A DNA stretch of 64,000 nt, taken from Obrimoposthia wandeli. Its lineage: Eukaryota. The first letter of the stretch is position 1. Each line of letters opens with the position of its first letter. Position numbers and translations under genes: made by a program. Of the stretch, positions 1-56,418 are shown piece after piece. The stretch is from contig CDROCS010001741.1 of the NCBI GenBank assembly GCA_977020255.1, positions 62,001 to 126,000 on the forward strand, written 5' to 3'. The notes under the pieces are model-generated. The model made no database searches and had not been told where the DNA came from. It saw only the letters and a list, made by a program, of their open reading frames with translations.

Positions 1-1555
1 AGAGGTTGAGTAAGCGCCCACCCATACAAATTATTAATGTCGATGTACAGAATCTCCGTGGGGTTGATTTTTGACAACATGATGTTTGTTGACAAAAGTC
101 ATTCCACCGCGTATACCATAATCATACATTTGATACATCGCGGGATCTTGCAGTAACTCGATATGAATTTTAAGAGTTTTTATTGCTGTTGCCCATGAAA
201 GACCAGGTAAACTAAAGAAATGCATGGGATCTAGCCCATCTTCTGATAAAGATTTTACACGAAAGGACTCAAAAACATCAGCTAAAAGATAAATGTCTAA
301 CTTCATATAATAAAGCATATATTCTAGAAGATTTCGACAATTATTCTCCCAAAATGTACGGGCCTCATTATAGTCTTGAAGACTTACACCCTCAAATTCA
401 GTTATGGGTGGGATTTCTGTAGTAGTTTCTAAATCTGCAAAGGTTTTTGCAAAATCATACGTAAAAGTCCACTTATCGTTAATCGAAGCCGGGAACACTG
501 ACTGTAATTAGCCATACATTTAAAGATGCCGTTAAATTTTTTAAAGACCCGCTCATAAACTGCAGACAATCTATGAATCTTAAACTGCAGAATTCAGTAT
601 ATGCAGTTAAAGATAAATATTTATCTGAAGTTTGAGGTATACATGAAATTTCCACAGAGCTTAATGTACCCAACGCATATTTAAGTATATGATGCAAATC
701 ATATTCTTTGAGATTATGAAACACGATGGGAATGCGTGGTTTTTTAGGGAGTCGACGGTCAAGGTTACAGAGGTTGCACGCCGCTCCCAAGTATCGGCCC
801 GTAACATGATCGTGATCTCTGACTAACTTAGACTGGGTTCCACACAAATAACATAATCTACAAGAATTAAAATTAACCCAGTCTATGCCTGTCATGATCA
901 TTGCTTGATGAGCATTAAGATCATACCACGGTTTGACAATTGTTGTTCCTAATTCTTCTAATTTTAACATAAAATCTAAAATACAATTTGAACCGGAAAA
1001 TTTATGATACTGTGTAATATTGAGGCCTAAGAATAGTAGTCCTGCCGAAGCCGGTAGATGAATACTCTCATACTGGTCGTGCAATGCTAGAATTGACTCA
1101 AAATCTGCATACACCCTGAATTCCACGGATATGCATTTTTCCCAATCTCTGAATTTTAAATCCTTATCATTAGGTATGATATATAGCGTATTGTCATCAG
1201 GATTCAGTGAACATAGTGTCAGATGTTTGCTGTAAGAGAGCTCGGATCAGAATCCATGCAAACACATATGACACCACTTACACCTTATCCTAACTGGTAA
1301 GGCTCCATTATCTAAATTTAGAAGACGATCTAAATTGGGAATTGCAACATAATGGAATTTTTTATTATGTTCGAGCAAAATTAAGTTGACCTGAGTCCCC
1401 TCATATTTGCTCCTATAAATTAGATCTACATAAGGATTTTTAAAAATTTCTTCATCTGTTACATTAACTGGGATATCAGTATTATATTTGAATAGGCTTT
1501 TCCGTAGGCTTTTCTCAATTTTTAACTACGTTTGAATGCGGGAATGTCATTGGAT
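1..1555 (-). pseudogene. Polinton/Maverick protein-primed DNA polymerase B (pPolB) fragment, copy 1, with embedded endonuclease VII-like Zn domain; runs off the window start
   Basis: ORFs 479..1126 and 34..498 contain ExoI VYADFES, CYLCG..RDHDHVTGRYLGAACNLCNL, IVFHNLKEYDLH and DIYLLADVFESFR..LDPMHFFSLPGLSW..GIRGG. A hand-read frame near the window start gives YIDINNLYGWAL. Frameshifted. Colinear with ~57566-59010. Confidence 0.9.
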
Positions 1556-12779: not shown

Positions 12780-13420
12780 TATTTGTAGATCAGTGTAATT
12801 TGTTGTTCTGGCGATTTTTATGATTTTATAAGAGTGATTATATAAATGTATTATTTTGGAAAAAACTTGGATCCTCTTTTTATTTACTTCTTTTGTGAAA
12901 TTAGTTTTATTTGATCTCTAAAATACGTATAAATCTTTCTACTACTGCTGCTTTGTACTGCGAAAATATCGAGTAGTGATATATATTATTTTGTTTAAAT
13001 AATGATAGAAATTTATGATTATAAAATTATTTTCCTAAATCAGTTGCACATATTGCGGAATGTCCTTTTTTAATATTTCTTTAATGGCTTCAGCATATCT
13101 ATTAAAGACTTTGCTTTAAATGGAATTGCACAAGCAAACCTGCTAAATACATCAATACATGTAAAATATATCTGTATCCCTCATTAATGGAAGAATATGA
13201 TATCATCTCCATCAAATCCATTTGCCATAACTTGTTAGGACCACTGGTTTTGTATACTCTAGATGGAAACCTTCTTCTCATCGGCTTTGTTCAGACTGTA
13301 GGCTAACTGATCGTTCAGCCATTTATGCGTTTTCTTGTAATTCTGTTTTGTTCTTTTTGCCAATTTTGAATCCCTGGTGTTGCTCATTGGATCTTTTGGA
13401 TTGAACCATATCTTCTCCAT
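12780..13420 (-). pseudogene. Polinton/Maverick retroviral-like (DDE) integrase, frameshifted and 3'-truncated
   Basis: Starts MEKIWFNPKDP..KWLNDQLAYSL, then across frameshifts RRRFPSRVYKTSGPNKLWQMDLMEM..NEGYRYIL.CIDVFSRFACAIP..VQTDLGK..FYNHKF..KAAVVERFIR. This matches the Polinton integrase pattern WQxDL / IDVFS / QTDxG / KAxxVERF. Confidence 0.88.
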
Positions 13421-13506
13421 TATAACAATTTGAACATATAGAAAATTAAAATTTAGGTAAAAAAAGATTAGCACCCATATCTTTAGATGATTTTAAAAAT
13501 AATTGT

Positions 13507-13820
13507 TTATTTCCGTGTCGCAGCTATAATATTACATATAATTGAAGCAATAACTGATATAACAACCCCTATGAAACCGCCATTCTGTTTAAGAATAATT
13601 TTTCATTTCCCTTTTTACTTTTACTGTAGCAATATCTAGAAGATTTTTTCTATATTTTTCCGTTTATCAATTTTTATTCGACCCAAAACTATATTATACA
13701 AAACTTTCAATAAATCATGTACAACAAAATATGGAAATGTTTAAAGAATACTCATTTTTTTAGGAGAAGAAGCTTTGATAAAAGCTTTTAAATATGGTAT
13801 GCTTTTTATACTTTCTTCAT
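13507..13820 (-). pseudogene. Small Polinton protein ending in QNGG followed by a hydrophobic/amphipathic tail
   Basis: Hand translation: ..YLKAFIKASSPKK..VVHDLLKVLYNIVLGRIKID..LKQNGGFIGVVISVIASIICNIIAATRK*. Resembles the small conserved Polinton ORF with an NxLxGxI core and QxGGF tail. Lies between ATPase and integrase. Confidence 0.6.
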
Positions 13821-13935
13821 TTAACTTTCTTTTATTTCAAACTACAGACTTGATTAATTTATTCACTTTTTTTACTGATTATTTTTTTTGTTGATTTCTT
13901 ATGCTTTGTTTTTACTTTACGTTTACGTTTTACTA

Positions 13936-14379
13936 TCAACTTCTTAAAAGGCATTGCAAATTTATTTTTTTATAATTGTTCTCTATTTGTTTATAAACAG
14001 TTACTCCATTAGAATTAAATATGTCTGTTAAAACACGTAAATCATCTGGGCAAGCTTGTGCAAAGACAATAAATATATACCCATTTGCTTGTTTAGCAGC
14101 ATCATGGAATGAATCAACTAAAAAGTTCTTATTTTGGGAAAATGCTTGTCTGGCCACAAAATTTACAACTGTTTGATCTCTAGGATTTTAAAATTTTCCT
14201 TCAATTTGCAAACTTCTGTTTGGGTTAGTCCACTTTCCACTCCTCTACCATGATGCTAAAAATATTTTTGAAACTAGAATCGAAAGAGCTTCATTTTGTA
14301 TCAATTTATAAACGAAATGTGTTTTTCTACTTCCACTGGGGCCAACAATTTGAAATACATCATTATTATTCATTTCCAT
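13936..14379 (-). pseudogene. Polinton packaging ATPase (FtsK/A32-like), internally deleted
   Basis: Degenerate Walker A IVGPSGSRKT at ~14320-14349. C-terminal FKNPRDQTVVNFVARQAF..DSFHDAAKQANGYIFI..PDDLRVLTDIF. The Walker B region is missing. Confidence 0.85.
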
Positions 14380-14415
14380 TACATAAACTCTTTCATTTTA
14401 ATATTGTTTATATTA

Positions 14416-14649
14416 TCATAGAAGTTTCCTTATCGAAAAGTATAATGGCAGAGCTACTGTATATGACAATAAAAAATTAATAAATGAATATTTGGCTATA
14501 ATTTTATTTATTTGTGTTTCATTTCTAAATTCTCGAATAACGTGTGATCTAACCAACATTTCAATGTTATCTCTTGTTATATCATTATTTTTTAATTTTG
14601 ATAAAATTTGTTTACCCTTAATTTTTACAGAAAAACATTTAATCAACAA
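14416..14649 (-). CDS. Small hypothetical ORF in the Polinton cassette
   Basis: 77-aa ORF co-oriented between the TBP-like gene and the ATPase; no motif recognised. Confidence 0.3.
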   Translation of the reverse strand: MLIKCFSVKIKGKQILSKLKNNDITRDNIEMLVRSHVIREFRNETQINKIIAKYSFINFLLSYTVALPLYFSIRKLL

Positions 14650-14784
14650 GTCGATCTACTTCGTTTTTTGTATTTATAGTATTATTCATTTGAAACAATT
14701 ATTCATTTAAATGGGTTTGTTTATAGAAAAAATAACAAAATGTAATAAAATATATATTAAAAAATTAATTCAATAGTGTTTTGA

Positions 14785-15128
14785 TAATCCAAATTTCACA
14801 ATCCCCATATCATAACTTAACCACTAGAAAATATATTTACACATAGCGGTGTAAACTTCAAATATCTGAGTGCAGGAAAAATTTCAGGTTCAAACATGTA
14901 TTCTTTCATTTTCTCCACAATTTTATAAAGATTTATTGGCTTCCCGAGATTACCTGAATCTGTGATTGATTGTATGGCGCAGATTTTAATTCCAAATGGT
15001 AAATTGATCTCATTCATCGGTAGTTTGCATCCCTTAACACGACAACTTCCTGAAATATTCAATATGAAAATAAAATGAAAACTAACTTGAAAAAAAATGA
15101 CAACTGTGAAATCATCAAACATTTGCAC
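14785..15128 (-). pseudogene. TATA-binding protein (TBP)-like gene carried in the Polinton cassette
   Basis: IQSITDSGNLGKPINL..FEPEIFPALRY..VNIFSSG*VMI aligns by eye with TBP repeat 2 (IQNMVGSCDVKFPIRL..YEPELFPGLIY..LIFVSGKVVLTG). ISGSCRVKGCK resembles the end of repeat 1. A premature TAA replaces the conserved Lys codon after SG. No introns. Confidence 0.75.
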
Positions 15129-15134
15129 ATATTG

Positions 15135-15713
15135 TCATGGCTTCCAATCATAGAGGCTAGAGTGGGTATCCTTTTGTATTTCCTTATTGAAATACCACGA
15201 GACTATTCGAACGAGTCCAGCTTGTTCTCTACGATTCATCTTTAATCGAATAGTCTGTGTTGCTCCTAGATCCACCGTGCACGAAAAATCGTTTTTCTGC
15301 AGTCCTAAAACCTTGAGGTCGTTGGTTATTCCCGTTCCTACGAAAATGTTGTCTCTTAGCAAGGACTGAACGCGTTGTAACACTTCGACAGAAACAGGTT
15401 GGTTTCTTAACTTACGTTCGTTGAGGCCCGTTATTCTTGTCACATAATTCCTGATTCTGTCTCTGCTATTGCATTTTGTATCCAACACGATTTGTCCGCT
15501 TTTGTTCATTATAGTAATGTTGGCAAGGGTGGGTTGTTTATTCATTTTTACTACCATTTTACAATCGACAAAAATTATTTGAGGATTGTTGGGGCAAATA
15601 TTCAAATGGCAGACTTGAACGGGACTAGGTCGCACATTTTGTTCTATGAATAATATGTTATGTCTACCTGATAAACGAATCATCAAATCGGGAGTTATTT
15701 GATGTCTCATCAA
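15135..15713 (-). CDS. DEDDh 3'-5' exonuclease of the REX4/ISG20 type; the catalytic Glu appears substituted
   Basis: FVDCKMV (cf. DCEMV), LANITIMNKSGQIVLD, YVTRITGL, IFVGTGITNDLKVLGL, IQKDTHSSLYDW (cf. IQxxxHSSxEDA). Open 192-aa ORF. Confidence 0.85.
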   Translation of the reverse strand: MMRHQITPDLMIRLSGRHNILFIEQNVRPSPVQVCHLNICPNNPQIIFVDCKMVVKMNKQPTLANITIMNKSGQIVLDTKCNSRDRIRNYVTRITGLNERKLRNQPVSVEVLQRVQSLLRDNIFVGTGITNDLKVLGLQKNDFSCTVDLGATQTIRLKMNRREQAGLVRIVSWYFNKEIQKDTHSSLYDWKP

Positions 15714-16126
15714 CCGGTAAGAGTGGTTTTGTAGGAAAAGAACGGAGAAATGCTTGCTTTTTTGTGTTTTAAAAATCCACGGCCTTTTGCTACGTGAATC
15801 TCAATGTCAGTGCATGTAGGCAAGAATTTCATCAACTCAAACAGTCTTTGTTCTGTTGGCTTTTTGCAATTTTTGTTGAGAATTATGCTCTGTCTAGGGT
15901 TGTCTCTTAATTTGATGTTATTTAGAAGCTGGGTCTGATTTTCAAAAATCTTTATTCCGTAATGGTTATGGAAATACCTTGTTCCAAACTGCTTTATTTT
16001 TCCATAAAGGAACTTAGTCATTTTTGCCATTTCTGGACGTTGTTCTGTTAACTGGACTGACTTCTCTCTCTTACTCTGCGGCACAACCTGCCAGTTCAAA
16101 TGAGGATTTGTACTTGTGGGTTCCAT
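15710..16126 (-). CDS. Hypothetical basic protein of the Polinton cassette
   Basis: Open frame (likely start MEPTSTN at 16126). Its TGA overlaps the ATG of the exonuclease gene. No family recognised. Confidence 0.5.
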   Translation of the reverse strand: MEPTSTNPHLNWQVVPQSKREKSVQLTEQRPEMAKMTKFLYGKIKQFGTRYFHNHYGIKIFENQTQLLNNIKLRDNPRQSIILNKNCKKPTEQRLFELMKFLPTCTDIEIHVAKGRGFLKHKKASISPFFSYKTTLTG

Positions 16127-16550
16127 CTGTAGGGTATACAGATATAGTAAAAAAATGTTGATTTTACACGCAAATATAAAAATTGTCAAATATTTATAAA
16201 TTGAAATGTTCGTGTCAGTTTATTTGTCTCTTTTTGTTTATCAAAAGTCTGTAAATCATTTTAGTTTTTTGATGTAACAAGCTCAATCAAACAGGTATAT
16301 AAATAAGATATATTTTTTCATTCTTTACTACATATTCTTGTTACTTCTATTATCAATATCAATATATACATATCTATATAAATATTTTCGTTTTTATTTA
16401 TTCTTAATATTTAGTATGACACTTTAATTAAAGTTAATGAATATTAATACCCATTTATAAACATATTTCTCTTCCAAGTCATGCCATAAGCTCAAACTCA
16501 TTCTCAATTTTCTTTTAATTCATATTCCAATCTACTCACTGGGGATTTTA

Positions 16551-16904
16551 CTAATTTTCACACCCGGAATTATTACTTTCTCCCTGTTGAAATCCCATTA
16601 AACGATTAATTACTGATCTCAATGATACAAGAGAGTTTAACGCTTCTTTGAGTCGTCGTACTAATAATTCCTGGTTTGTTTGGCTATGTTCTAATATCTC
16701 AATTGCAACGTCAAAAGCATTATTCATTCGCTCACATTTCATTTCCTTGTCTTTTAAATGCGATCTCAGATTTATATTTTCTATCAATAATTTATTTTCC
16801 CATTTCTTCTGTCTCTTATATCTTCTTCTATTATTTTGTACTATTTTTGAATTTCTCATTTCTAAAATGTTAATAAGTTTTAAGTTCATTTTTACTATTT
16901 TCAA
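16551..16904 (-). CDS. Hypothetical coiled-coil protein
   Basis: 117-aa ORF with a basic cluster (RRRYKRQKK) and heptad-like Leu/Ile spacing; co-oriented upstream of the cassette. Confidence 0.35.
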   Translation of the reverse strand: MKIVKMNLKLINILEMRNSKIVQNNRRRYKRQKKWENKLLIENINLRSHLKDKEMKCERMNNAFDVAIEILEHSQTNQELLVRRLKEALNSLVSLRSVINRLMGFQQGESNNSGCEN

Positions 16905-17049
16905 TTTAAACTAAACACATACGCACTTTCCTTCATCTACATTATAATTACTTTATTTTATGATTAGTTTTTATTTTAGTATGTCAATTCATGTATTTTC
17001 TTGTATGACAATTTTATAAAGATTTTTCTCTTTACTTTTTATTATTCTC

Positions 17050-18240
17050 AATTATTGTATTTATTGATATGTTAGATGAGTTTGAAGAGCTAGGTATGAT
17101 AGATGTTATAAATGGGCCAGGAGGTTCACAATATTTAGTCCGATAATGTTTTTTGAAAATTGTGTTATTTTTTACTTTAATGACTTTCCATGTTATTTTT
17201 ATTATTTATGTAAAGATTTCAATTATTATGATTGTTACAAAAATTTCCTTGTTATTTATATTTTTTTAGTATTTTTGTTTACAAAAGTGTATTTTTAGAC
17301 TTTCATTAAATGATTTATAGGGTATTGTTTCTGTTGTTTTTAATTTTTTGTTAATTTTTGTAATTTCTGTAATATTAATTTGATTTGTAATTTCATAAGT
17401 CTTTGTTGTGAAGGTTGTAGCATGTGGTATTTGTTTTATGGTTGTTTCTTTGATATATTTCCTAATTGTAATTACTGACCAATGGCCACAAAAATCGTAG
17501 GTTGATATAATTTGGATATTTTATTTCCTAAAATCCTTTAGTTTGTTAGATTTCTACAAGTCTCAAATTGTTGTCCCCATTGTCTATACATTATTGGTTT
17601 GTTAGTAATTACACATTCTCTATTATCCATAATTAATTTTTCTGGATATCTTATATTTTTTATAGTTATATTTGTTTTGATTTGTTATTTTTCTAATTGT
17701 TTTTCTGCGTCTTTCCAAAAATGAGCATTATGTCCTCTATATCTAATTCTAATGAAGGCTTTATCTAAGTTATCTATTTTAAGTTGAAATTCTCAATTTA
17801 TCATGATTTGATGTTTTGTTATATAATTTGCTGTCGTCTTTAATATTGAAGCTAAGTATAAATGAGTTTCTATCATTCTTTCATAGAGTGTTATATTCTT
17901 TAAATTCGACTTAACTCTTATTTTGTATTGTGTTTCTGTTCTTAAAAATGGTATTATATAATTTTTTTGAATTAATTTTGTAAATATTTATGATTTGATT
18001 TTTTTCAGATTGGATTATCTGAATTCTTCCTAATTTTCTTGTAAAGAGTGATATTTTAAACTTTATTGATGTGATTTCAGGTATTATTGTAATTAGTCCA
18101 AAATCTTTTATGAGATGTGTTGATGAGTCCTATTTATTTGTTTTGTGTTTTACTATAAATTGATTTTCATTCAGGTTTATTGCGTTTACTTTCATTAGGT
18201 TACTTTTTATTGTAAAATATATTACCAATAACATCATTAT
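17050..18240 (-). pseudogene. Degraded extra ORF downstream of integrase (env position); possible secreted or membrane protein
   Basis: Hand translation: hydrophobic start IMMLLVIYFTIKSNLMKVNA, Cys/Trp-containing segments (RECVITNKPIMYRQWGQQFETC, YDFCGHWSVI), a Thr-rich part and NxT/S sequons. Many stops. Confidence 0.4.
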
Positions 18241-19488
18241 TTTACATTTTTTTTTATTGACATTTTTATTGTATTTCTAGTTTGATGACTCAAAATAGTC
18301 TTGTTTTGTTTTTGTGAGTTTTTTATAGTTAACATTTGTAGAACAGTATTATTGCTAGTTGATCTTAAGTTATATTTGTGACTTTTTACTTTTGTATTTT
18401 CCTCAGGTATTTCTCGACATCTGTTTATATGTGTTCTTATTTCTTTTGATTTTGGTTCATAGTCGAGTTTAGCTGTTATGTTAGTTCCGTTGGTACTAAT
18501 GACTGTATATGGTCCTCTGTATGGTTTTGATAATTTGTGTGACAATCCTACATTAATTTGTGGATTGTAAATCATTACTTTACTTTCGCTTTTTATATTT
18601 GATGGCTTAGTTCTCTATCATAATATTCTTTGTAATTTTCTTGTATGTTTTTTACAAATAATTTAGCTTTTTCGAATGCTAGTTTTATTCTTTCTTTAAT
18701 TTCTATTTTATATTCAGGTATTTCTAGGTACTGTGTAGTAGGTTGTAGTAATGTTAGGTCAATAGGCATTTGAGGATCTCTAAGGAACATAAGGTAAAAA
18801 GATGTTTCTCCTGTAGATGCATGTACTGATGTTCTATATGCAAAAAGGCATGGAGGTATATGTAAATCCCAATCTGTTTGGTTGTTGTTTGTGTATGATG
18901 CCATTATATCTTCGAGGGTTCTATTAAATCGTTCTACTAATCTGTCGGTTTGAGGGTGATATGGTGTCGTATTGATCTTTTTTATGTGAAAAATTTCAGC
19001 TATTGACGCTAATACATTATTTATAAATTCAGGACCTTTGTTGGTTAATAATTTTTGGGGTGCACCGAAAGTAAAAATAATTTTTTCGACTAAAACCTTC
19101 GTATTGGTTTCAGCCTTATGACCATGTGTTGGAAAAGCCTTTGGCCATCTTGTAAAATAATCAGAAAATACTAATATATATATCGATTTCCTCGGGGTGT
19201 TTCAGGTAATGGTCCCATTACATCCATGGCAACAGTTTCCATGGGGGCTGATGGATAAGGTATTGGTTTTAAAGGTATTTTTGTGGTACGTAAAGTATTT
19301 TTCCGTTTAAGACATATTTCACATGTATTGCACCAATTTTTTACATCTTCTTTCATATCAATCCAATAATATTTTAAGTTTAATCTCGAATGTGTTTTTT
19401 TAGTTGAAAGATGTCCTCCTAAAGCTCCGTTATGATATTGAAGGAGTAATTGACATTGTATTTCTTTAGGAATAACTAGTGAGTACAT
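18237..19488 (-). pseudogene. pol: Gypsy integrase (HHCC, DDE core, GPY)
   Basis: YHNGALGGHL..YYWIDM..CNTCEIC; VAMDVMGPLPET; TTPYHPQTD.LVERFNRTL (hand-read between the track ORFs); WDLHIP..FAYRTSVHASTG; KLSKPYRGPY. Confidence 0.95.
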
Positions 19489-19530
19489 ATTTTTATCGTT
19501 TAAATAATGTAAAATTTTGTTACTGAATTT

Positions 19531-20960
19531 CTAACGAGATTCATGAAATTTCAAATGTTTTCTTAATTTTTCATCTGTTGGAACTTGATTGATAGTTATG
19601 TACTTAATTATTTGTTGTATTTCAGTATCTTTGCTTTGAAGATCGGTGATTACTTTTTCATCATATTTTGCTTTAATTATTGTGAAAAGATTTAATTCAG
19701 TATCATCTAAAGTCATTGTGTTTATGTCTTCTTTTATTCGAGATAGACAATCTGCGTTAGTGTTTGATTTACCTTTTCTATATTTTATCTCAATATCATA
19801 TTTTTGAAGAATTAACACCCATCTCATTAATCTAGATGTTGTATCTTTATGATTTAGTAGCCACTGTAAGGGTCTTTGATCGGTATAAACGTAAACCTTT
19901 CGGCCTAATAAGTAATGTTTAAAATGTTCTATAGAAAAACAAATAGCTAGGCATTCTCTTTCTATAGTTGAATAATTTATTTCGTGTTTTTTAAGACCTC
20001 TGTTTGCGTAAGCTATCAGATGATCTTTTTCGTTATTATCTTGTTGTCCTAGTACTGCTCCTAACGCGTATACACTTGCGTCAGTCATTACCAAAAATGA
20101 ATTGTTAAAATTAGGATATCTAAGTATAGGTTTTTCAATTAATTTTTGTTTTAAGTATTCGTATGACTCTTGTTGTTCTGTTTCCCATTCAAATTTTTCA
20201 TCCTTTTTAATAAGTTTATTTAACGGTGTCACTATTTGTGCAAAGTTTCTGATAAATCTACAATAATATCCTGCGAGTCTCAGAAATTCTTGTATATTTT
20301 TACTGTTTTTGGGATCGGAAATTTTTAATTTTTTTCTATATTACTCTCGTATGTTTGAATTACTTTTGCAGACACTGCGTGACCTAGATAATTTACCTTG
20401 TCTTTCATCCATTCACACGTTTTAGGCTTTAATTTTAAACCTGCTATTTTTAATCTACGGAATACGTTTTCTAAGTCTTTTAAATGTTCCTCAAATTTTT
20501 TTGAAAAAATACCATGACGTGATCGGCATCCATTAAAATGTGACTCATGCATATCTGAAATGTTGTGGGAGCACATGTTAAGCCAAAATGTAATACATTA
20601 AATTCATATAATCCTTCTCCTGTTGAGAATGCTGTTTTCTCTTTATCAGATTCTTTTATCTCTATTTGCCAATATCTACTCTGTATATCTATTGTTGTAA
20701 ATATTTTTGCATTTTTTAGTTTATCTAAGATTTCATCGATTCTTGGAAGTGGATAAGTGTCTTTATGTGTAACCTCGTTTAATTTTCTGTAATTCACACA
20801 AAATTTTAATGAATCATCTTTCTTTTTTACTAAAACAACCTACGGAATACGATAAAGTCGTTGTTTAATCGTTCTGCTAGCAGTTAGAGGAAGGTTATGT
20901 TTTATTAAATCCGTTCGTCCAAGGTCATATTCATTTTTAGCAAAAATTACATCGTATTTT
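19531..20960 (-). pseudogene. pol: Gypsy reverse transcriptase and RNase H; the YxDD motif is deleted
   Basis: YRKLNEVTHKDTYPLPRIDE, YWQI..DKEKTAFST..GLYEFNVLHFGL, YLGH. RNase H: TDASVYALGAVL..NYSTIERECLA..YTDQRPL..RWVLILQ..ADCLSR. The sequence jumps from VMV to FSKKFEEH near 20510. Confidence 0.95.
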
Positions 20961-21330
20961 TCTATCAATGATTTAAGTTTTGATTTTTCATAATCATTTA
21001 GTTTAATGTTTTCAAAATTTATTGTCGAATTGTCTTCTATTTTTCGTTACTAATTAACTCAATATTCTCGATAATACTTATTTTTTCAAGGTGTACTCCT
21101 TCCTTAAGATGAATTTTGTTTATGTCTGCATTTAATATTCTGATAGGTATTGTATTATTTTTTATTTTGCAAATTATATTTGGTAGAACATAGTTTAGTG
21201 TTTTTTATTGATATTTATAAGGTTCGAATAATATATATTTTTCTGTGATTAAGTTAGTTTCTAATTGTAATATTGTTTCCGTTCGTGGTTGAAGTATAAC
21301 ATCTCCTTTTATTTCTAACTCAAATTCGCT

Positions 21331-21685
21331 TTAAGTGTTTGATCTGTAAATATCTCTAATTTGATTTTTCTCAAAGTCAAAATGAAAATTGCTTCCTATT
21401 TTCCTTAATGTATCTATACCAATAATCATCTGGCAATGACAATTTTTCATAATTCTGGGTGGTATTTTAATAAATTTATCTCCTATTTTAAAAATGCAAT
21501 CTAATTTACCAATAATATTTATGGGTTGACCGTTTGCTGCTGTTACTTGACTATTATCTCTGAGAAGTAGTAATCTTTGGTCTGGTTTTAAGAAAGACTC
21601 GTCCAAGACTGTAACGCTTGATTCTGTGTCAATTAAAGCTTTTAATTTGTACTCATTTATTTCAACTTTTACATAAGGTCTTCTA
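21331..21685 (-). pseudogene. pol: Gypsy aspartic protease (DTG>DTE), in the same open ORF as the env transmembrane region
   Basis: RPYVKVEINEYKLKALIDTESSVTVL..VTAANGQPINIIG..MIIGIDTL within ORF 21331..22074. Confidence 0.92.
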
Positions 21686-21879
21686 TCATTATCTCTTTGA
21701 TTTATTGTATATATTGTTGGTGCAGTTGATTTTTGAATTATTTTTTCCTCTTTATAATTTGCTAAATCGGGATATTGTGCAGATTCTGTATTATCTTTAT
21801 TTTTATTGTCTACTAGTTTTTGTAAATTTATTTCTCGCATTTCCTTCGATAATGCATTTACTGTATTTTGATGATGGTT

Positions 21880-23216
21880 AAATATAAGAAATTTTGTCAA
21901 AAATGGAAAACATCCCAAAATTAGTTTCCATGTCAATCCACCAACTTTATAAATATAATATGTAGATAAAATTTGACTCAAAAGAATCTTAAAGCATATT
22001 AGTAGCGTGTATATTCCTACAAGTCCAGAAAATGCTTGACCGAAAATTAAAACTTTTCCCCATATTTTTGACATTGTATTTTTAGTAACTTTTATAAAAT
22101 GATTTGGAGAAACTAATAAATCGTAATCAGGACTGCTAATTCCGTCTGGTACTGATTTTTCAATAATTTGCGTTAAAATTCGTGATCTAATTTGAGGAAA
22201 TAAAATGAATTTTATTAATTTATCTATGTCTTCTTGTATGTGTGGTTGTTGTTTTTTTTGTTGGTGTGGTTTTTGCGTTATATATTTTTTCCTTACTTAA
22301 ATATATTCCTTTATAGTTTTTTGTATAAATAGAGTGTTCACATCGGGATTCCTCTTTCTTTTTAATAAATCGCATTCCAGAACCTTGTTTAGTTGACATA
22401 AAAATAGTTGGAGTTGATGTTTTTTGAATTTTTCTTGTCCTATATTTTTGATGTATATCTTTTGGAACTCTTTGATCAAGTTCTGGGTCATCTTTAAATC
22501 TTTGACCTTGAATTATTTGAAAACTTTCAGATTTAAGGAGTATTAATTTGCATTGCTCTGTTTTTACCTTATAATATAAAATTGAGGATCCTGTATTGCA
22601 ATGAACTATATTTGCTTCGCATAGTTACCATATTATTTGTAGAGGGATCAAATGTTGCTTTAAACGTCCATAGTTCTACTTCAAAGTTTTTTATCACTAC
22701 TAAGCCACTTTGTTTGACTCCCATCACGATGTATGTACCTGTTGTACATGCACCGTCAGATTTTATTGTTCCTATTACTGTAATTATTTGTTGTATTATT
22801 TTATTTTTTACTGCTCGTACTTTAATTTCTCTATCTATTCTTAGTTCTCCCGTTGCAAAAGCATCCTTAAAATTTAGTGCATCAACAATTACTGGTATTT
22901 TTCCCAATGCAGGTTTGACAATCGAGTTATGGCTGTGTTGTCCGCAATATGTTATGAATGTTTCTACATGTACCCTACACTCGAAAACTTCGGTGTTTAT
23001 AAAATCTGTTTCCTGATATACGTGGAATAACTTAGTGGTTTTAACTTTTACTTTATTTGGGTCTGCGTGGGCGCATTGTTGTAGATCCATTAAGGAGTAT
23101 TTATTTTGGATACTATATTTTGAGCAATCATATGTTTCAAGAGCATTTATAGGTTTTAATATATTCATAATTATACATATTGTAAATATTAATTGAATTA
23201 ATTTCCATAGTTTTTG
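21880..23216 (-). pseudogene. env: Envelope glycoprotein resembling chuvirus/Jingchuvirales class III (gB-like) fusion protein; internally deleted
   Basis: Signal-like segment then LETYDC..YSL..C..VYQ..VFECRV..TYCGQHSH.S.V..TGEL..GACTTG (ORF 22569..23168). Middle frame ..IFMSTK..RCEHSIYTKNYKGIYLS. Then QEDIDKLIKFILFP and KIWGKVLIFGQAFSGLVGIYTLLICFKILL..GLTWKLIL. The motif order matches my recollection of chuvirus-type glycoproteins. Confidence 0.8.
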
Positions 23217-24671
23217 TTAGAACAGTATGTCTTTTTTATAGTTTTTATTTTTCGATTTTTTGGTGACTCGCTTTCTATTTTTAATTTTTGACTCTGTGTT
23301 TTGTGTTTGAGTATTTTGGTTAATTTTTATATTTGTGTGTTTTAATGTCAGGCAACCATTTCTAAACATGTCTCCAAATTCTGATTGTGCGTTTGAACTA
23401 TTTGTATTTTGTTCATTATTTTGATATTGTTGTTGTGTTTGTTTGTAACGTTTATCTATTTCTTGTTGTCTTAATCTCAATAATGAGACTTCTTCAGTTT
23501 TCTGGGTTATATCAGTGTTTTCTATAGTATGTATTGGTTTCTGTAAGCATATTGTTGATTTTGATTGTTAAATTGCACTGATTTTTGGATTTGTGGTTGT
23601 TGTTGTTTTATTGAGGTGTTACCAAATTGTTTCATTACTGTTTTTAGTTTACCACATTCGTCAGTGTTGTGGTTTTTCATATTACATATTTTACAAAATT
23701 TTGTATTAGCATTAAAATATTTAGCTTGATTATTCTGATTATTGAAATTGTTATATAGACTTCTGAAATTATTATTTGGATTATTGAAATTATAATTTTG
23801 TGGTCTTACATTATTATTTTGTCTATATAACAATTTTCGACAAGTTTCAATGTTATGATTATCTTTTTTACAAAATCTACAAAATTTATTGTTTGTTATT
23901 TTTCGGCAATTTTCTATTGTGTGATTTTGCAGTCCACAATTTGTGCATTTCTGGAAAGGTCTTTGTGTAAATTGTGAGTCTGTATAGTTTCTGTTTGTTT
24001 GATTTCTATAAAAGTTATTTGTCAGTGGTCTATATTGTTGTTGGTTATGGTAATTAAATTGTGTGTTTGGGTTAAAGTTTTCGGTATGGTTGTTATTTGG
24101 TGGTGTTGATGGTCGTTGTATTTTTTTCAAAAGTTAGCGCTGAAACTTCTGTTTGTTGCAACATATTTAAGCTGGTTTCTACAAGTTGAGCTTTATTTAT
24201 AGCTTGTTGAAGCTTTTCTACTTCTAGTAGTGCTGGGTGATTTTTGATTTTATCGTTTAGTCCATATAGGAACTGATGTAGTAGTAAGCGTTCTCTTAAA
24301 GCTTCTTCAATTCCGGGAAATGATTTTAAGGCTAATCTTCGTAATTCAACTGCAAAGATATTTGTGGGTTCTCCCATATGTTGCCCACGTTACCTAAATT
24401 GGTTAAAGTAATTTTGTTCTGACTGTGCTCCTAAAATCATATTTTGAAAATTCTGAACCAAATGGTCCCATGTGTCTTTTTGTTCATTAGTTAATCCTTT
24501 ATAAATTGTTAAAGCAGTGCCTTTTAAATATGCTGGAAAAATCCTAAGTTTCTCTGCATTAGTCCACTCAAATGCCTGAGCAAATGAATCAAACCTATTC
24601 ATAAATTCGGGTAGTGAAGATTTAACGCCATTGAAAGCGTTTAATGGAAAATTTAACTTATGTGCAGCCAT
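23217..24671 (-). pseudogene. gag: Gypsy gag (capsid-like domain, Asn/Gln-rich nucleocapsid with three CCHC knuckles, basic tail); frameshifted
   Basis: FNG..PEFMNRFDSFAQAFEWTNAEKLRIFPAYLKGTA..W..L; R.Q..GEP..FAVELRRLA..QFLYGL; CTNCGLQNHTIENC, CRFCKKDNHNIETC and CKICNMKNHNTDEC (Cx2Cx4Hx4C). Confidence 0.9.
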
Positions 24672-24738
24672 TATTTGAGGTTGGTCGATTATTTGTTTGT
24701 TGTTTATCTGTATAATAGGTGGTTCTGGTCATAAGGAA

Positions 24739-24939
24739 TGTGTGGGGCAGAACGGCTACTTGCGCGGTAAAAGCATGGATGCACTGTTGCATATAGACAT
24801 GGGACATCTACGCGAAGTAGTATGGCGCAAGATCGCTATGAATCTCAATCAGGCGGAGCAAGATGAAAGCTTCAATTGCTGGCAAAATAAAAAATAAACC
24901 TGACACAAGCTGTTAATCCGACTTCAGTTCTGGTCAACA
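24739..24939. repeat. Candidate LTR-like segment (TG...CA) just upstream of gag
   Basis: About 200-bp GC-enriched block bounded by TGTGTGGGG and CAACA, 68 bp from the gag ATG. No second copy and no canonical TGG PBS found. Confidence 0.3.
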
Positions 24940-27840
24940 TACCAGGCCTACCTGAGATTTATCTGGGAGCTTGACCCTGACTAATGTAAACATTAGCGCA
25001 TAATGAGCTAACATTAATAATTTGTATGCACTTTAAAGTACTTCAAACACATAATCAATTGCCCCGGATGGGCTTAACTAACCACATTCCTCTATCAACC
25101 ATCGTAAACATCACATTTATTAATTATCATCAGATTATTTCGCATATTTTAAGTGACCTAAAATCATTTGAATTGGTCAATAAAACCATTTATGCAATTA
25201 TTAGCGCTTTATGATGATTATGCACACGTATGTGATTGGTGATTTGTATCGTTTTTAAATAGCTATGCTTTAAATCAAGTGTGAAATTTGTAGTAAGTCA
25301 ATGTTATGGATATTATATTATTTAACAACTTGTAACATAATGCACATTCACAATATTTTATTTTCTATAAAACAACTCTTTATAAAATATTTCGGCACAA
25401 TTTCGATTAATATTAAAATAATTATTTTTACGAAACATTCGGCACATACAGCATAAAATACTTATTTAATTAAGGAGTTCATTTAACAAATTGCAGTCCA
25501 GCAAAATCAAAAAGAAGTTTTATTAGGCAATGTATATATTGATGTACACGTAAATATAAATTGTAAGTAAATATGAATCATATATATGTTATCGTTTACG
25601 AATTTTTGCATTCTAAACAAATTTAGAGATAATTAACCAGGATAATTACCCTTATAAGTCAATTATGTGAAAAATAGGGTGATATAAAGGAATTCCACTA
25701 ATATCTAACTACTTAACATGAATAAAATATTAAAAAAATAGAATTTAGATTGCTTAACGAAAAAAATGAGAAATTTTAAATCTATACGGAGTCACTTAAA
25801 GAAAAACATTTTAAAACTAAAATCTAAGACTGGTTGAAATTACAAGGTTTAGAATGACATGAATATTATCAAGAGTTACTATTGTTTCTACAAGATGGAG
25901 CCGTTATGTCAGAAGTGTTTTGGATTCCATATTTGAACAAAGATGGATTGGATTAAAATGGAAAAATACATTCTCAGAACATTTTGTTATGGAGAACTGT
26001 CAAATAGATGACATTCAACCAAGAAAATCATACATTTAATGATTTGATAAGTACAATAAAGAAATATACTAAGAAACAGAAATATGTGAAAACGTTATCA
26101 ATAACTTTGGGAATAGCAATGTATTACTGTTGAAGATATTCATCTTTAATAAATATGATTTCCCGTTTTCTGCATATTTTTATTTAAAAACTTAAAGAAA
26201 AACTAAAATTCTGTATTGAAATAAAGTTATTAATCTTTAAGTGACTGACCCTGTATAATAAATTAAAATCAGTCAACCCTAGAATAGTTCGTTACTTGAA
26301 AAGCTATTTTATTAGATGACAAAAACATTGTCAAATTATTTGTTATAAATCAAATTTTTTTCTTTTTTCTCATTCATGTTTCAAACGCATTTTTTATTTT
26401 GTTAAATTTTAGTTTAAACAAGTTTTCTTTCTGATTAAGTCACTGATTGCTCATCCTCATAAAAAATTAAATCATACAAATTATAAGTACATTATAAAGA
26501 ATATTCATGATTTTTCTTTATCAATAATTATTAATCAACATTTTTTAAATTTATTATTGAAAGCTAACTGAAAATCATTATTAGTAGGTAGATGTGGCAC
26601 TACCCACGCCACTAACAGCATCAACCCTGGGCAACTTCGCAACAGAGATATCTGAAGTAGGCATAACAATTCCCACCCATTTCTGTTTAAAATACTTTTC
26701 AAATGTAATTAATATAAAATATTCCAGTCTGTCCATTAAATAAATTACAACATATTAAAATAAGTCATAATTTTTGATAATTTAATCTGCATCAGCTGAA
26801 CTGACAAGATTCGATATTAGACAATAGCTAGAGATCTTCCGCATTAAAGGCAGGTGAATATGGTGCCACTGCTTCTGTTGTCTCTGACGAACTATCTGAG
26901 TCAGATTTTTTTGTGGTGAATGTAAACTTTCTGTATCTGAAGTTAATGTTAGGTTTAGGTGTTCTGAGAGTGAGGAAGTCTGTGTAAGTAAATCGTTATT
27001 TGTTGCAAAACTGATTTGTGATTTGGGTCTTTGAATCGTTTTCTCACTGGAGTCTGTCCTAACTAATCTTGTTTGAATTCGTCTCCAGTGAAGGCTAGCG
27101 CTACGTTTTTGTTTATTTATTTTGTGTGTGTTTTTATGATAGTTTTTTTTGGGTTTGTGTTGTCAGTAATTTATTTAAAGTTTCAAAAAAATTATTGTGA
27201 CAAATGAAAAATGCGCAATGCGTACTGAAACTAAAAATATTTCGGTGATATTCGTAAAAGTTATTTGGTCAATCTCAAAATCAAGTTCTCTTAATAATAT
27301 CAAAACACGTTCTCTGAAAATCTCTGGAGAAAATTTATCTATCCGAAGTTTTATTTGATTTTATGTTGTTTTTAAGTTAGAGTAAAATATCAAGACTCAA
27401 ACATTTCTCTCAAAATTTCCAATTTTTGATCAGTTTTATATTTATCCAAAAATATATATAATTCTTTCAACTTTTATTATCTTTTTAGTTTTTTATTTTA
27501 CTATTGCGTCTCTAATAGATAAATCCACTCCAATTTATAATTTTCAAAAACGAATCTTTATTGGTAAACCAGTTCAAAGGAAAATGTTAAAATCTATCTC
27601 AAAATTTATTGTATTTGAGTTGTGCTTCGTTTATTGATTACTTTTTAATATTTTCGTCAGTGTTCAAAACTCTATCCGACAACAGCCAGTGTTTAGCCTT
27701 TATGTGAACAGAACTCCGAAAACTGATAAATTATTTTTCTATTAATTTTACAATTAAATTGACATACACAACTCAAATTGTAAAAGAAGATTAGAGATAG
27801 GAACTCGACTATGTTTCAGAAAACAAAAATTATGTTTAAT

Positions 27841-27948
27841 CTTACGAGGCTTGTGCGCAAAGCTGAAAACACCTTAACTATTTAGTATTTTATACTTACG
27901 AGGCTTGTGCGCAAAGCTGCAAACATCTCAACAATTTAGTATTTTATT
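27841..27948. repeat. Direct repeat, 2 x ~54 bp
   Basis: CTTACGAGGCTTGTGCGCAAAGCTG(A/C)AAACA..TTTAGTATTTTAT at 27841 and ~27895. Confidence 0.85.
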
Positions 27949-38171: not shown

Positions 38172-38264
38172 ATATTTTATAGAGTTTTCTCACCTATGCT
38201 GTGACTAGCTGCGACTAAGTCAAATCCGGTACTGGAACTAGCTGGAATTATTGAGACGATCGGC

Positions 38265-52029: not shown

Positions 52030-53453
52030 TCAGGCCTTGATATTCAATCATTCTTTATATTTTATTAAATTGTTTTAACAAAACCAGTGACATGTATATA
52101 TATATATATATATTTACTGGATTAATGAGTTATGATAGGAGTATATATTTCATCTAATATATACAACAAAAATTAGAGATGTGACCGAATTTAATTAGAA
52201 TATTCATTGAATTTTCAAGGGGCCAATAATTACTTCCATGGGCCTGATTTCAGTTATAACAGAAATCTACTGTATTTAGAATGTATATATTTCATCAAAA
52301 AGACAAAATTAGAATATTTATATATTAAATTTTGAAATTATTGAAAACTCAAATTTTTTAATTTTTTCAGTTCTGTGACAATGTCATATTAAATTGAACT
52401 AATTTCAACTCTAAATATGATCGAATGGATTTGACTTTTCAAAACGAACAGAAAATTTAATTACATTTATGGAAACTTTCCAGAGTTGTTTTTCATCACA
52501 AATTAAATTTCCTTGTTTGTTTGTTTTTGTTCAAGTATACATAAACATGACAGAAGGCGCGAGCCAGAAACGAAAGACACAAGCAAGTCAACACGGGTTT
52601 GATGTGGGAATTGTCCCAGCAATTACGCGGTCACTCCCCCACAACACCGGAAGCGATTATTTGCCCAATCAATCAGCCCCTACGTGTCTGGCAAAACCAG
52701 AGAAGATGGCCACGTGATTCTGGCAGTATTTACCAGATTCCCCCAATACCCACGATATCCTCACGATATCTCACGTGAGTGAGAGTCAGAATCTAGAGTT
52801 TCCTTTTTCAACTGTCTATTCACATTGATTGGGAAACACAAATCGTTTTATACATAATCGGGATATATATATATATATAAATTTTCATTTCATTAATTAA
52901 TTTAATGAAATTCACTAGCAAATTTTTATCTCAATTTTTCTTACCATTTATTTAACGGAAAATTAGAAAATCCGGCGTAAAATATTTACAAAAATATGTT
53001 TTAATGCATATTTATTATTTTGAATTGTTATCCAAATAATTTTCAAAGTAAATGTTTAAATTTTTAATGGTACAATTAGTCAAAATTTAAATATCAATTT
53101 CTTTCAAAAAATTTAAAAACTAAATGAATTTAAACTAAATTGTACATTTCCTACATTGTTTTATAGGTGTTTTTTTGATTTTGGAGACTTTACAAGGTAT
53201 ATTAGATTATTAATAAAAACAAAATAATGGATATTAAATTTTAAAAATTTGAAAAGAATTTATGTATAAAAATATATATAATTCTAAAATATTGTTCTGT
53301 TGTTTTCAATTCGAATTTTGATGGATAAAATGTCATACTTTTAACTTATTAATCAATAATTAACTATTTTAAAATATTTTTTATTCATTATTCTCCAATT
53401 TCTATCAGAAAAGAAATTACAAAATAAATTAATTATGAAAAACAAATAATGTT

Positions 53454-54280
53454 GTGATCAGGTTTGATAGTAAAGGAAAATTCTATTACAAATGTATAGA
53501 TAAAGAAGTAAAATTAATATATGAAAATAACAAATTCAGATTTAAAAATCGAGTATTTTTTAATCAATTGATATTTGAATCTAAAAAAGAAGCTCTTCAA
53601 TTCGGTTTTGATAGTGAACAAGCAGTAAGTATTAAGAGACGGGATATTGTCTCATCTAAATCGGTTAGACATGTTCCTGGTAGAGTAGCAAGACTGTTGT
53701 TTGTTGAAACGAAAGCAAAGGATGTCCTGGAACTGAAAGGGTTTTTAAAATATTATAAAATAGATAGTGATCAGAATTTATGTAAAAATATAATGAATGA
53801 ATTTAGTGAATATTTGGAAAAATGTGAAACATTAAAAAAATGGTAAATTGACGTTTACAGTAAAGATAAATATAAAACGGCTTTCCTTTGATGATAAACT
53901 CGCTAAAAACCTGGGTTTAACCAGAAATACCTTTGAAACCCATACAATAAAAACCATAAATCTAAAATCAAAGCAAAACTTTTAAATGCTATTAATCAGT
54001 TATATAGTCATACTAGTTTACTAGAACCAACGCTTGTAGGAGGACTACGAGTTCCACTTTTGAGAACAATATGGATATCTCAAAGTCAAACAAAAGTTGG
54101 GAAGTTATCAGTATCCGTATAGATCAACCAATATATCTTCCAGTTGCTCTCTTATATTTAAACAATATTGAAGTAAATATTAGAGACGATTCCGGACAAC
54201 TAATAGATTTCACGTACGGAGCCATCACAAGTTTAACAATACATTTAAGAAAACAAAATGGCGAATCCGGCAATAATTGA
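53454..54280 (+). pseudogene. Polinton minor capsid protein (penton), frameshifted
   Basis: C-terminal LYSHTSLLEPTLVGGLRVPLLR..PIYLPV..NNIEVNIRDDSGQLIDF..TIHLRK is the penton signature. ORF 53454..53846 is assigned as the upstream part by position only. Confidence 0.75.
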
Positions 54281-54587
54281 AGCTTTTGGTCAAAACTAAC
54301 ACGGTGGAGAATTATCATATTTTATTGGTAAACAATATAGATCCGGCTGGCTTAGAACATTAGGTAGATTTGCCTTTCCTCTTTTGAAGAGACTCAGACG
54401 ATTTATATAAAAGTTAGGAAAAGATTACCTTTCATCTAAGAAAAATAAACTAATACCAACTTTTAAAAAGCATTCACTTAATGAACTTGATAATGTTTTG
54501 CCAAAGGTTGCTAATTTGATCAGAAAAGGTAAATCAAATAAAAAACAAGGAGGTAGAGAATTTGAACGTAAAAAAAAATTTTTTTGA
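54258..54587 (+). pseudogene. Small basic Polinton core protein (pVII/pX-like) with two nonsense codons
   Basis: MANPAIIEAFGQN*HGGELSYFIGKQYRSGWLRTLGRFAFPLLKRLRRFI*KLGKDYL..KQGGREFERKKKFF*. Lies between penton and MCP. Confidence 0.65.
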
Positions 54588-55763
54588 TAAACTTCTTCCG
54601 CAAGTAGTTGTAGATAATGCTTCCTTTGAAGAAATATTTCTAGTTAACTCAGTTTCAGGAACCGCTTTAACCGATTTAGATTTTAATATTAATGGTTCCA
54701 ATAGTGAGTATTTAGATTTGAATGATACTTTGCTTTATGTTCAAATAAAAGTATTAAATCGAGATGGTACTAATTTAGAGAAAAATGCCGATGTAACACC
54801 TGTAAATTATCTCTTTAATTCTTTATTTAGTGATGCTATTGTTACTCTTAATAATGTCAAAATTGAAGTTGGAACTCTTCCTATGCTCATAAAGCTTTGA
54901 TTGAAAGTCTTTAGAATTTTAGTACTGATACTCAAAATACTAATTTGACAACCATTGGTTATGATAAAATTGATGCAACTCGCAAAGAATGGATTGCGGG
55001 TTCTAAAGCTTACGAAATGTGTGGGTCTTTGAGATTGAATTTCTTTGAACAACCGAAATATTTAATTCCCGGTGTTAATGTACATCTTCGTTTGAAACGT
55101 AATAAATGGAATTTTTCTTTGATAAGCACAGACGTTCTAAAACCTAGACTTGATATTTTGGATGCAAAATTGTATGTCCGAAGAGTTAAAACGGAGCAAT
55201 CAGTTTTAATGGCACATAATATAGGAATGAAAAAAACAATGCTTGTTATCCTATAAGAGAAACTAAACTTATATCCTACTCTTTAGGTACGGGTACACAA
55301 GCTTTTAATAAGGATCAAATTTTTGGTGATGTAAGATTACCGAAATTCATTTTAATTTCTTTTCAAAAAACTGCAAAGTTTCTAGGAAACTCAATTTGCC
55401 AATCTTAATGTAGGTTCAGTGACACTTTCAAGAAATACTGATTATCGCGAAACATATAAAACAGATTTCGAAGGTAACGCTTATGCTTTGGCTTATACCC
55501 AATCTATTATTCGGAATATTGGCCAACTAGATAAAAATATAAACAATGGTATTTCTTTCATTGAGTTTAAAAGCAGCTGTCCGTTATTCACATTTGTTTC
55601 GGCACCAGACTTTGATATAAACCAATGCCAACTAGCAAAGGATGGAAATTTACGACTAGAAATTAAGTTCAATGTAGCTTTAACACATCCTACTACGGTG
55701 CTTATTTACGGAGTATTTGATTCGGAAATACAAATCAATAAAAACAGAACTGTCATATTTTAG
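54562..55763 (+). pseudogene. Polinton major capsid protein (double jelly-roll, hexon-like), frameshifted
   Basis: DFNINGSNSEYLDLNDTLLYVQIKV..DGTNL..PVNYLFNSLFSD..LNN; FFEQPKYLIPGVNVHLRLKRN; AKLYVRRVK; GNLRLEIKF..L..PTTVLIYGVFDSEIQINKNRTV. Confidence 0.92.
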
Positions 55764-55764
55764 A

Positions 55765-56146
55765 ATGGAATAAGACACATTTTAGATTTATATTTATTAA
55801 TTTTTATTTAGTTCAGTACAAGTACAAGAATCAGCAGAGAAGGTCCTGAGTGATAAATTCAATGGTGTTTATACTATTGATATGATTCCATATTTTTAAA
55901 TCTGGAGGTTACATTATCAATACTCATACTTCGAATTTATCAGGAGAACATTGGATAGCTATTTATGTTAGAGAGTGGACAATACATGTATTTGATCCAC
56001 TTGCAATGTATTATCCACACAAACTTGTTTCAACTATTCAAAAAGGACGAAGAAGAGTATTTTACAACAAGATAAAATACCAGGATCCTGCGACGAGAAA
56101 CTGTGGACTTTTATGTATTTTATGGTTATTGTTGCAAAACGGTTAA
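55765..56146 (+). pseudogene. Adenain-like cysteine maturation protease
   Basis: Not in the ORF track. Hand translation IINTHTSNLSGEHWIAIY..VFDPLAM..KYQDPATRNCGLLCILWL shows the catalytic H, D, Q and C. 5' part frameshifted. Confidence 0.88.
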
Positions 56147-56418
56147 TGTGTTATTATAATAAATAATTTTTAAAAACTTATTTTATTTTGAATTATTTTT
56201 TTAAATCCCTAAAAAATTAAAATAAATGGGTAAAATATAAAACACATAAACGAATTTTTTTTAATACATTTATTCAGCAAAATATCACAACGAGATCTGT
56301 CAGCAAAGATAAGGCCCAACCTAAGAAAGTATTGAAAAAACAAAAAGTTAGAGTCAGAGTGCCATTAGGATCTAAAATTTTAAAAAACTAAACAAAAAAA
56401 TCAAACAATAAAAACCGT

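Follow-up and report, generated by a model that had tools for sequence, protein, structure and literature searches.

Beta- and gammaherpesviruses encode TATA-binding protein (TBP) mimics, among them ORF24 of KSHV, BcRF1 and UL87. According to PMC12529657, ORF24 belongs to a nuclear virus without an RNA polymerase of its own, has a TBP fold with a more polar DNA face, and reads the TATA variant TATTWAA in front of late genes, while early genes have conventional promoters. The TBP-like gene and its elements described below resemble the KSHV system in these respects. However, ORF24 is large and multi-domain, belongs to a complex of six members, contacts Pol II directly and has no TFIIB-binding acids. 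TBP homologues are also known from NCLDVs, and PMC7221094 presents viral TBPs as varying mostly at the TFIIB-binding acids and as accompanied by a viral TFIIB. The elements that carry the gene resemble the Polintons, Mavericks and adintoviruses, for which the part of PMC8502044 available gives pPolB, an integrase, an A32-like ATPase, a double jelly-roll capsid, terminal inverted repeats and a 6-bp duplication.

In this work, a decayed Polinton copy of the TBP-like gene was compared with its relatives. To our knowledge, Polintons encode no RNA polymerase, and the expression of their capsid genes is an open question. The sequence-only reading of this DNA had regarded TBP as undescribed in Polintons, which holds in part: no description was found, but "TBP" stands as a gene label in the legend of Fig. 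5 of Starrett et al. (2021, PMC8502044), on the MELD-virus genome map in the section on non-animal datasets; the accessible text of that paper holds no TBP analysis or promoter box, and the TBP of the legend may differ from the Polinton family. No paper on the family or its box was found in the literature, where figures, bioRxiv supplements, Repbase and subscription papers may name the gene. By term, Polinton TBP was absent from the available text of PMC11161782, PMC12220804, PMC10675990, PMC13037468, PMC11131425, 10.64898/2026.10.13.758929 and 10.64898/2026.06.19.733378. This work contributes the intron, a residue map, the promoter (TATA plus initiator) of the TBP-like gene and control elements.

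Results

The window and its decayed TBP-like gene

The window, i.e. the whole stretch of 64,000 nucleotides that was analysed, holds fragments of Polintons and no single intact element. Its features are as follows.

1..1494, minus strand: separate Polinton fragment with pPolB (homology; DNA_pol_B_2 match weak, below cut-off)
12831..13420, minus strand: 5' part of a Polinton integrase, truncated at 12831 (homology to younger copies)
13513..13806, minus strand: remnant of small ORF B, pX-like (tblastn; Adeno_PX matches of relatives weak, below cut-off)
13966..14379, minus strand: packaging ATPase remnant with an internal deletion of ~220 nt at 14191-14194 (homology; the intact copy matches Pox_A32, PF04665)
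13988..13995, minus strand: TATAAACA box within the 3' end of the ATPase
14405..14412, minus strand: TATAAACA box ~32 nt before the probable ATG of the ATPase
14416..14689, minus strand: small ORF A (tblastn, 79% to the family-1 ORF)
14718..14725, minus strand: TATAAACA box, 35 nt ahead of the small ORF A start (ATG) and overlapping the end of the TBP-like gene
14721..15049, minus strand: exon 2 of the TBP-like gene, with the last N-lobe strand, a short linker and the entire C-lobe (PF00352; 3' end by comparison with L035)
15050..15086, minus strand: intron of spliceosomal type, 37 nt long (GTTAGT...TTTCAG), in phase 1 where copies are intact (sequence comparison)
15087..15154, minus strand: what is left of exon 1 of the TBP-like gene without its 5' part, with N-lobe strands as far as the splice donor (blastn homology to younger copies stops at 15154)
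15153..27894, minus strand: Ty3 LTR element with gag, Monjiviricetes-type glycoprotein, pro-RT-RH-INT and exonuclease (Pfam; collinear full copies C28 and C203)
29453-29632: further Polinton fragment
53376..59012: separate Polinton fragment with penton-like gene, small ORF, capsid and protease on the plus strand and pPolB on the minus strand (homology)

The minus-strand open frame at 14817-15134 (105 aa) matched the Pfam TBP family PF00352 with E 4.7e-7 and 30 bits, above the curated cut-off of 22.9 bits, which confirms the TBP-like frame of the sequence-only reading. With stops read as X the frame reached 36.8 bits, and its relatives score 46-66 bits. The reading had also called the frame "two-repeat": the model of a relative does have both lobes, but the Pfam match on the window frame covers only the C-lobe, i.e. 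the second half, and the N-lobe of the window is incomplete. The N-lobe is degenerate across the whole Polinton TBP family, and in the window copy its first ~20 codons are absent because the break at 15153/15154 leads into the Ty3 exonuclease gene. In-frame stops lie at 14819-14817 and 14798-14796, and the exon 1 remnant is out of phase with the splice donor. With no start and two in-frame stops near its end, the window copy is therefore a pseudogene, incapable of encoding a working protein. We regard it as likely that the window preserves a pseudogenised copy of a Polinton-encoded TBP of altered specificity.

DNA homology of the window to younger Polinton copies extends over 12831-15154 at ~84-85%. 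After the TBP-like frame there follow, on the minus strand, small ORF A, the ATPase remnant with its deletion, small ORF B and the truncated integrase, so the placement of the frame beside a packaging ATPase and an integrase was correct, with remnants of both downstream on the same strand. No Pfam match above cut-off was obtained for small ORF A. Immediately ahead of the integrase is a small ORF that starts with Met-Gly and has the box 32 nt upstream of it, in the window (13478, minus strand) as well as in metagenome contig L070 (~3410); we take this start to be a possible myristoylation signal.

The Ty3 element adjoins and truncates the TBP-like gene and lies outside the Polinton. A fusion of exonuclease and TBP was ruled out, the exonuclease being a Ty3 gene and the join a break point. 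Between gag and pro-pol the element has a Monjiviricetes-type fusion glycoprotein, and after the integrase a coiled-coil ORF and a DEDD exonuclease of ~380 aa; the collinear copies on contigs C28 and C203 have LTRs of 1.3-1.4 kb. At a family-3 Polinton locus, an ORF located upstream of the TBP-like gene shares 60% identity over 376 aa with the Ty3 exonuclease (L158:2848-3975 and L054:1297-2523), a similarity that suggests exchange of the exonuclease gene between Ty3 element and Polinton. Elsewhere, the window contains tandem arrays with units of 31-42 nt and 35 nt at 37691-38719, partly common to the L024 repeat, and fragments of a hAT-type transposase at 8329-10950 (weak DUF4371 match).

A spliceosomal-type intron in the TBP-like gene

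The gene had been described as intronless, which turned out to be wrong: a 37-nt GT-AG intron occupies 15086-15050, and 17 of the 20 other copies examined have a 33-39 nt intron at this site, with exons that remain in phase. Of the other three, two are out of phase and one has a deletion through the donor. Among the rows listed for four contig sets no joint at the intron was seen, which bears neither way on expression or splicing. The genome searched is a 1.35-Gb AT-rich eukaryotic assembly (G000), the window's own; at least 150 matches to the gene were obtained there from 30,505 first-look candidates, and most of the matches listed share one stop at the same place, inside the GT-AG intron. 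Thirty-seven intronless relatives align across the site without gap or insertion. Three further Polinton families of the same genome have the TBP-like gene, one of them intronless and two with introns of 35-40 nt that are unrelated in sequence and sit at the same site and phase, as does the intron, again of unrelated sequence, of L070. In the intronless family (L151-L153) the dinucleotides AG and GT meet exactly at the intron site of the other families, in a proto-splice-like arrangement. The intron may have been gained more than once, or lost. One intron site shared by several families implies that the gene is probably expressed in the nucleus and spliced by the host. The host TBP has no intron at this site.

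Linkage to Polintons and spread of the family

The sequence-only reading had assigned the gene to a Polinton and not to the host. This assignment is upheld by Polinton gene order around the gene at 10 of 10 long loci examined, by its presence in complete elements and by its separation from host TBPs. The intact Polintons that had been suggested as a check exist in families 3 and 4: complete elements of 16.7 and 16.2 kb with terminal inverted repeats of ~500-600 nt and 6-bp target duplications (C146, C131) carry the gene. Terminal inverted repeats and target duplications were not found for family 1 in the stretches examined, nor in the window. At least four Polinton families have the gene in this genome, and it turns up in many metagenome contigs. 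Among the latter, 13 of 24 family contigs match Polinton ORFs (9 with core genes), compared with 0 of 56 contigs with canonical TBP; the other 11 family contigs are short (1.0-3.4 kb). Furthermore, the Polinton gene order around the TBP-like gene varies among metagenome loci. A search covering protein lengths of 91-291 aa gave 37 relatives among 52 candidates, with 37-53% identity and mostly 145-165 aa long, and a search of 50%-identity representatives gave 83 matches at E up to 1e-10, a few of which are archaeal TBPs.

Long polB and integrase frames are present in the 10 loci, labelled partly from motifs read by eye. The A32-like packaging ATPase matched Pox_A32 with 29.6 bits against a cut-off of 22.8. 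The capsid gene is, with moderate support, a predicted double jelly-roll major capsid protein: the model has a pLDDT of 48 (low confidence), its best matches are iridovirus and faustovirus capsids (E 6e-5), the first Atlas match was 0.98, and the DJR-like family was found on 15% of members. The penton and the cysteine protease gave no Pfam match and are tentatively named here from position and known motifs. No matches were obtained in viral_contigs with TBP, capsid and ATPase queries, nor in the phage collection with the capsid. In a search of the own genome for a TBP-less Polinton family, capsid matches were uniform at 28-31%.

Several other gene contents were observed in these elements. A Polinton on L183 (11568-12122, minus strand) encodes a near-canonical two-lobe TBP, i.e. 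a second kind of Polinton TBP, and has canonical TATA boxes before 6 of 15 ORFs. One or two ORFs of ~120 aa, all of one family, often flank the TBP-like gene (L059, L062-L066, L018, L152, L159). They were considered as TBP partners, but as their look-alikes are unnamed NCLDV proteins (DUF2738/DUF5871), possibly ssDNA-binding, the ORFs were given no role in transcription. Families 3 and 4 carry IAP genes (BIR plus RING), and family 4 has a dual-specificity phosphatase (IAP and phosphatase loci at L158:5047-5943, L159:5572-6591 and L160:3408-3812). The Polinton contigs L181-L186 are filed within bacterial MAGs, probably as contamination.

Fold and residues of the protein

Structure prediction and inspection of the DNA-intercalating Phe residues had been proposed as checks on the TBP-like frame. 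The AF2 model of the relative P0003, which is not the window copy, has a pLDDT of 95.5 and an N-lobe without helix, and superimposes on human TBP over both lobes (VIA-align Z 12.8, rmsd 3.0, 152 residues). On this model, the family is predicted to have the two-lobed TBP saddle fold. Residues were mapped in yeast numbering, via a fungal TBP that maps ungapped to yeast 63-239, on an alignment of 39 compact, 12 intermediate and 29 cellular rows. As in cellular TBP and TRF (PF00352), which share the two-lobed saddle, N69 (97-100% of family rows), F116, F190, F207 and E188 (100%), P191 and E186 (97% of compact rows, 75% of intermediates) are kept, and thus the C-lobe acidic stirrup for TFIIB (E186/E188) is retained. 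In contrast to cellular TBP and TRF, the family forms a separate clade and is without the F99 stirrup, F99-A101 being deleted in 51 of 51 family rows; three of the four intercalating Phe (F116, F190, F207) remain and the fourth is gone. Residues 132-147, i.e. helix H2 and the basic patch, are gapped in most compact rows, whereas in intermediate rows H2 is present but diverged. The compact members also have an eroded helix H1, and the family has no N-terminal extension. According to PMC7221094, contact with TFIIB is made by acidic residues of the C-lobe, and the basic patch on the N-lobe is the site for TFIIA, TAF1, Mot1 and Brf.

Compared with cellular TBP, the DNA face of the family carries ~10 changes, and polar residues are fixed there. 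V122R, T124M and L205N are found in 100% of rows, and N159S/T, V161T/S, I194R, V203C and V71N are common. We take I194, V203 and L205 to be the three sites of the classical altered-specificity TBP mutant. Three second-repeat substitutions are mentioned, with their sites unnamed, in the text available from PMC10005294. As a counterpoint, N159 and F99, both important for DNA binding in cellular TBP, are altered or gone in the family.

Phylogeny and selection

In the trees, the Polinton TBP family forms a single clade apart from cellular TBPs (SH-aLRT 99; 18 rows with a long stem in a quick tree), and the host TBP1/TBP2 exons group with eukaryotic TBPs. The phylogenetic check proposed earlier thus separates the family from host TBP, with the reservation that forcing the two together was rejected at the borderline (p-AU 0.047). 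Identity to cellular TBP is ~20-25%. Comparison of the families gave dN values of 0.38-0.43, with dS at 1.66 or saturated, which indicates purifying selection on the TBP-like gene. The host also has TBP paralogues, two of them head to head (L139/L140, G000:C238); C60 and C1092 hold divergent intronless TBP-like genes, and C968 a split one.

A box upstream of packaging and capsid-module genes

An unbiased word count over 68 upstream regions found ATAAACA in 38, against a background of 4.9%. Within 100 nt upstream, ATAAAC[AG] precedes 37 of 39 packaging and capsid-module genes and 0 of 22 TBP-like genes; the Fisher values for this contrast overstate independence because the box was found post hoc in related elements. 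Outside the 39-gene set are the integrase (box in 3 of 5) and the divergent ORF X and ORF Y (0 of 1 each), and the protease and polB are absent from the counts, their starts being uncalled. The distance from box to ATG is mostly 31-49 nt for the ATPase, small ORF B, the capsid and ORF Z, while some boxes lie in coding sequence (ends of ATPase, integrase and penton genes), 65-100 nt from the ATG. The box is sense-strand biased and occurs also between genes. The base following ATAAA is C in 25 of 26 cases against a background of 20%, and the base preceding ATAAAC[AG] is T in 28, C in 9 and A in 2 of 40.

The TBP-like genes have a different putative promoter. TATAWAWR is present 35-47 nt upstream of 9 of 22, compared with 2 of 39 other genes, and the initiator-like TCA[GT]T is found at 14 of 22 compared with 4 of 39; the remaining 13 TBP-like genes have no canonical TATA within 100 nt. 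In element L181, a held-out case added once the box had been defined, the family gene is present and boxes lie at -37 and -35. On the other hand, in the control elements L182-L185 and L187, in which the family gene was undetected, the box was seen ahead of matching genes in 2 of 17 cases, 21 and 78 nt away; these contigs are partial, so that the family gene could lie outside them, and they amount to about one lineage contrast. L182 and L183 have TATAAAAGG at the matching site of the ATPase end.

Cellular TBP tolerates C at position 7 (TATAAAC). The sequence TATAAACG was reported to keep 27% activity in Arabidopsis protoplasts (PMC10005294), and PDB 1qn3 is, by its title, a C(-25) variant bound to wild-type TBP.

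Discussion

We hypothesize, as the probable explanation, that a viral TBP made early recognises late promoters of the TATAAACA type and brings host TFIIB and Pol II to them. The host machinery would, where the element is intact, transcribe the TBP-like gene early from a canonical TATA and initiator, and the transcript would be spliced in this lineage. The protein of ~150 aa would then bind the minor groove of the TATA variant (T/C)ATAAACA, which lies ~31-49 nt before the start codons of packaging and capsid-module genes, and host TFIIB and RNA polymerase II would be recruited through the conserved C-lobe stirrup. The N-lobe helix, by which cellular TBP is regulated through TFIIA, TAF1, Mot1 and Brf, appears to be lost in the Polinton TBP. 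The outcome would be an early-to-late switch in a virus without RNA polymerase. The remodelled N-lobe would then lie opposite the C at position 7, a lobe orientation that is partly assumed and that fits the statement in PMC12529657 on a C-lobe proline favouring T at position 1. The sequence-only reading had proposed that the factor redirects or antagonises host transcription; the gene-class-specific box speaks for redirection, while nothing positive was found for antagonism.

The box could instead be read by host factors, either by host TBP/TFIID as a weak TATA or by a forkhead protein, the Polinton TBP being a decoy that titrates TFIIB and dampens host transcription. Host TBP does use TATAAAC weakly, ATAAACA fits the forkhead consensus, which is RYAAAYA, and the TFIIB-binding glutamates were kept while F99 and N159 were lost, as a decoy might have it. 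However, other forkhead words are rare in the 39 regions (GTAAAC[AG] 3, ATAAATA 1, GTAAATA 2, reverse orientation 0), the near-fixed C at position 7 (25/26) is not favoured by host TBP, and a non-binding decoy would have no need of the new DNA-face residues, which are invariant in 51 diverse sequences. We consider such host reading unlikely. It is very unlikely that the Polinton TBP binds the box as a repressor, keeping the late genes silent while the element is latent in the host genome and up to the onset of replication. Gene and box would then co-occur in the same way, and loss of the TFIIA surface could hinder productive complexes, but the C-lobe TFIIB stirrup is conserved and another TATA-like element stands upstream of just 2 of 39 late genes. 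With no such element in most of them, the late genes would be promoterless under repression. Moreover, the box might be a non-promoter word, such as a polyadenylation signal, a coding constraint or a replication or packaging signal, with an unrelated role for the TBP-like gene. It resembles AATAAA, and several boxes coincide with conserved codons at gene ends; yet of 40 boxes 37 are preceded by T or C and 2 by A, the spacing of 31-49 nt to the ATG is that of the canonical TATA of the TBP-like gene (35-47 nt), and boxes favour the sense strand and also lie between genes, all of which makes this highly improbable. A host TBP gene or retrocopy recently captured as a passenger, despite the host-type intron and the merely borderline rejection of a grouping with host TBPs (p-AU 0.047), can practically be dismissed in view of the ~20-25% identity to cellular TBP, the long-stemmed 18-row clade (SH-aLRT 99), the purifying selection, the carriage by distant Polintons with different gene orders and the lack of an intron at this site in host TBP.

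Returning to the viral TBP that would read late promoters, the Polinton TBP would, by analogy, work like the herpesvirus TBP mimics and is not a member of them. Unlike ORF24, the Polinton protein is a bare core of ~150 aa in which E186/E188 are retained, and its box is set apart by position 7 (TATAAACA). The ORF24 type of large protein, with an N-terminal domain for Pol II and a C-terminal domain for DNA, is unmatched in the family, whose proteins have ~145-165 aa in the search over 91-291 aa. The NCLDV TBP homologues share the viral TBP fold and are the top BFVD matches (E 2.8e-7), but are only 9-20% identical to the family. For a virus-encoded TFIIB, no Pfam match was obtained in 62 of 115 listed ORFs and a few others, nor in 21 proteins, a search which a divergent homologue could escape.

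We incline, if only slightly, to the broader view that this Polinton lineage, which is widespread, controls an early-to-late transcription cascade of its own by means of the smallest TBP-type factor known, a protein of ~150 aa that has no H2, has co-evolved with TATAAACA and uses host TFIIB without TFIIA, TAF1 or Mot1 control. The window copy is a dead fragment, and the value lies in the family. The pairing of one protein with one 8-mer allows a test on a small scale, and the box can serve as a marker for calling late genes in unannotated elements. The family is also a natural experiment on TBP specificity and on the TBP surfaces that are dispensable for Pol II initiation. If the proposed reading is true, factor and box would form an orthogonal TBP-promoter pair of natural origin that converged on the late transcription of herpesviruses, and this would count as evidence that these elements pass through a regulated virus life cycle with no helper giant virus.
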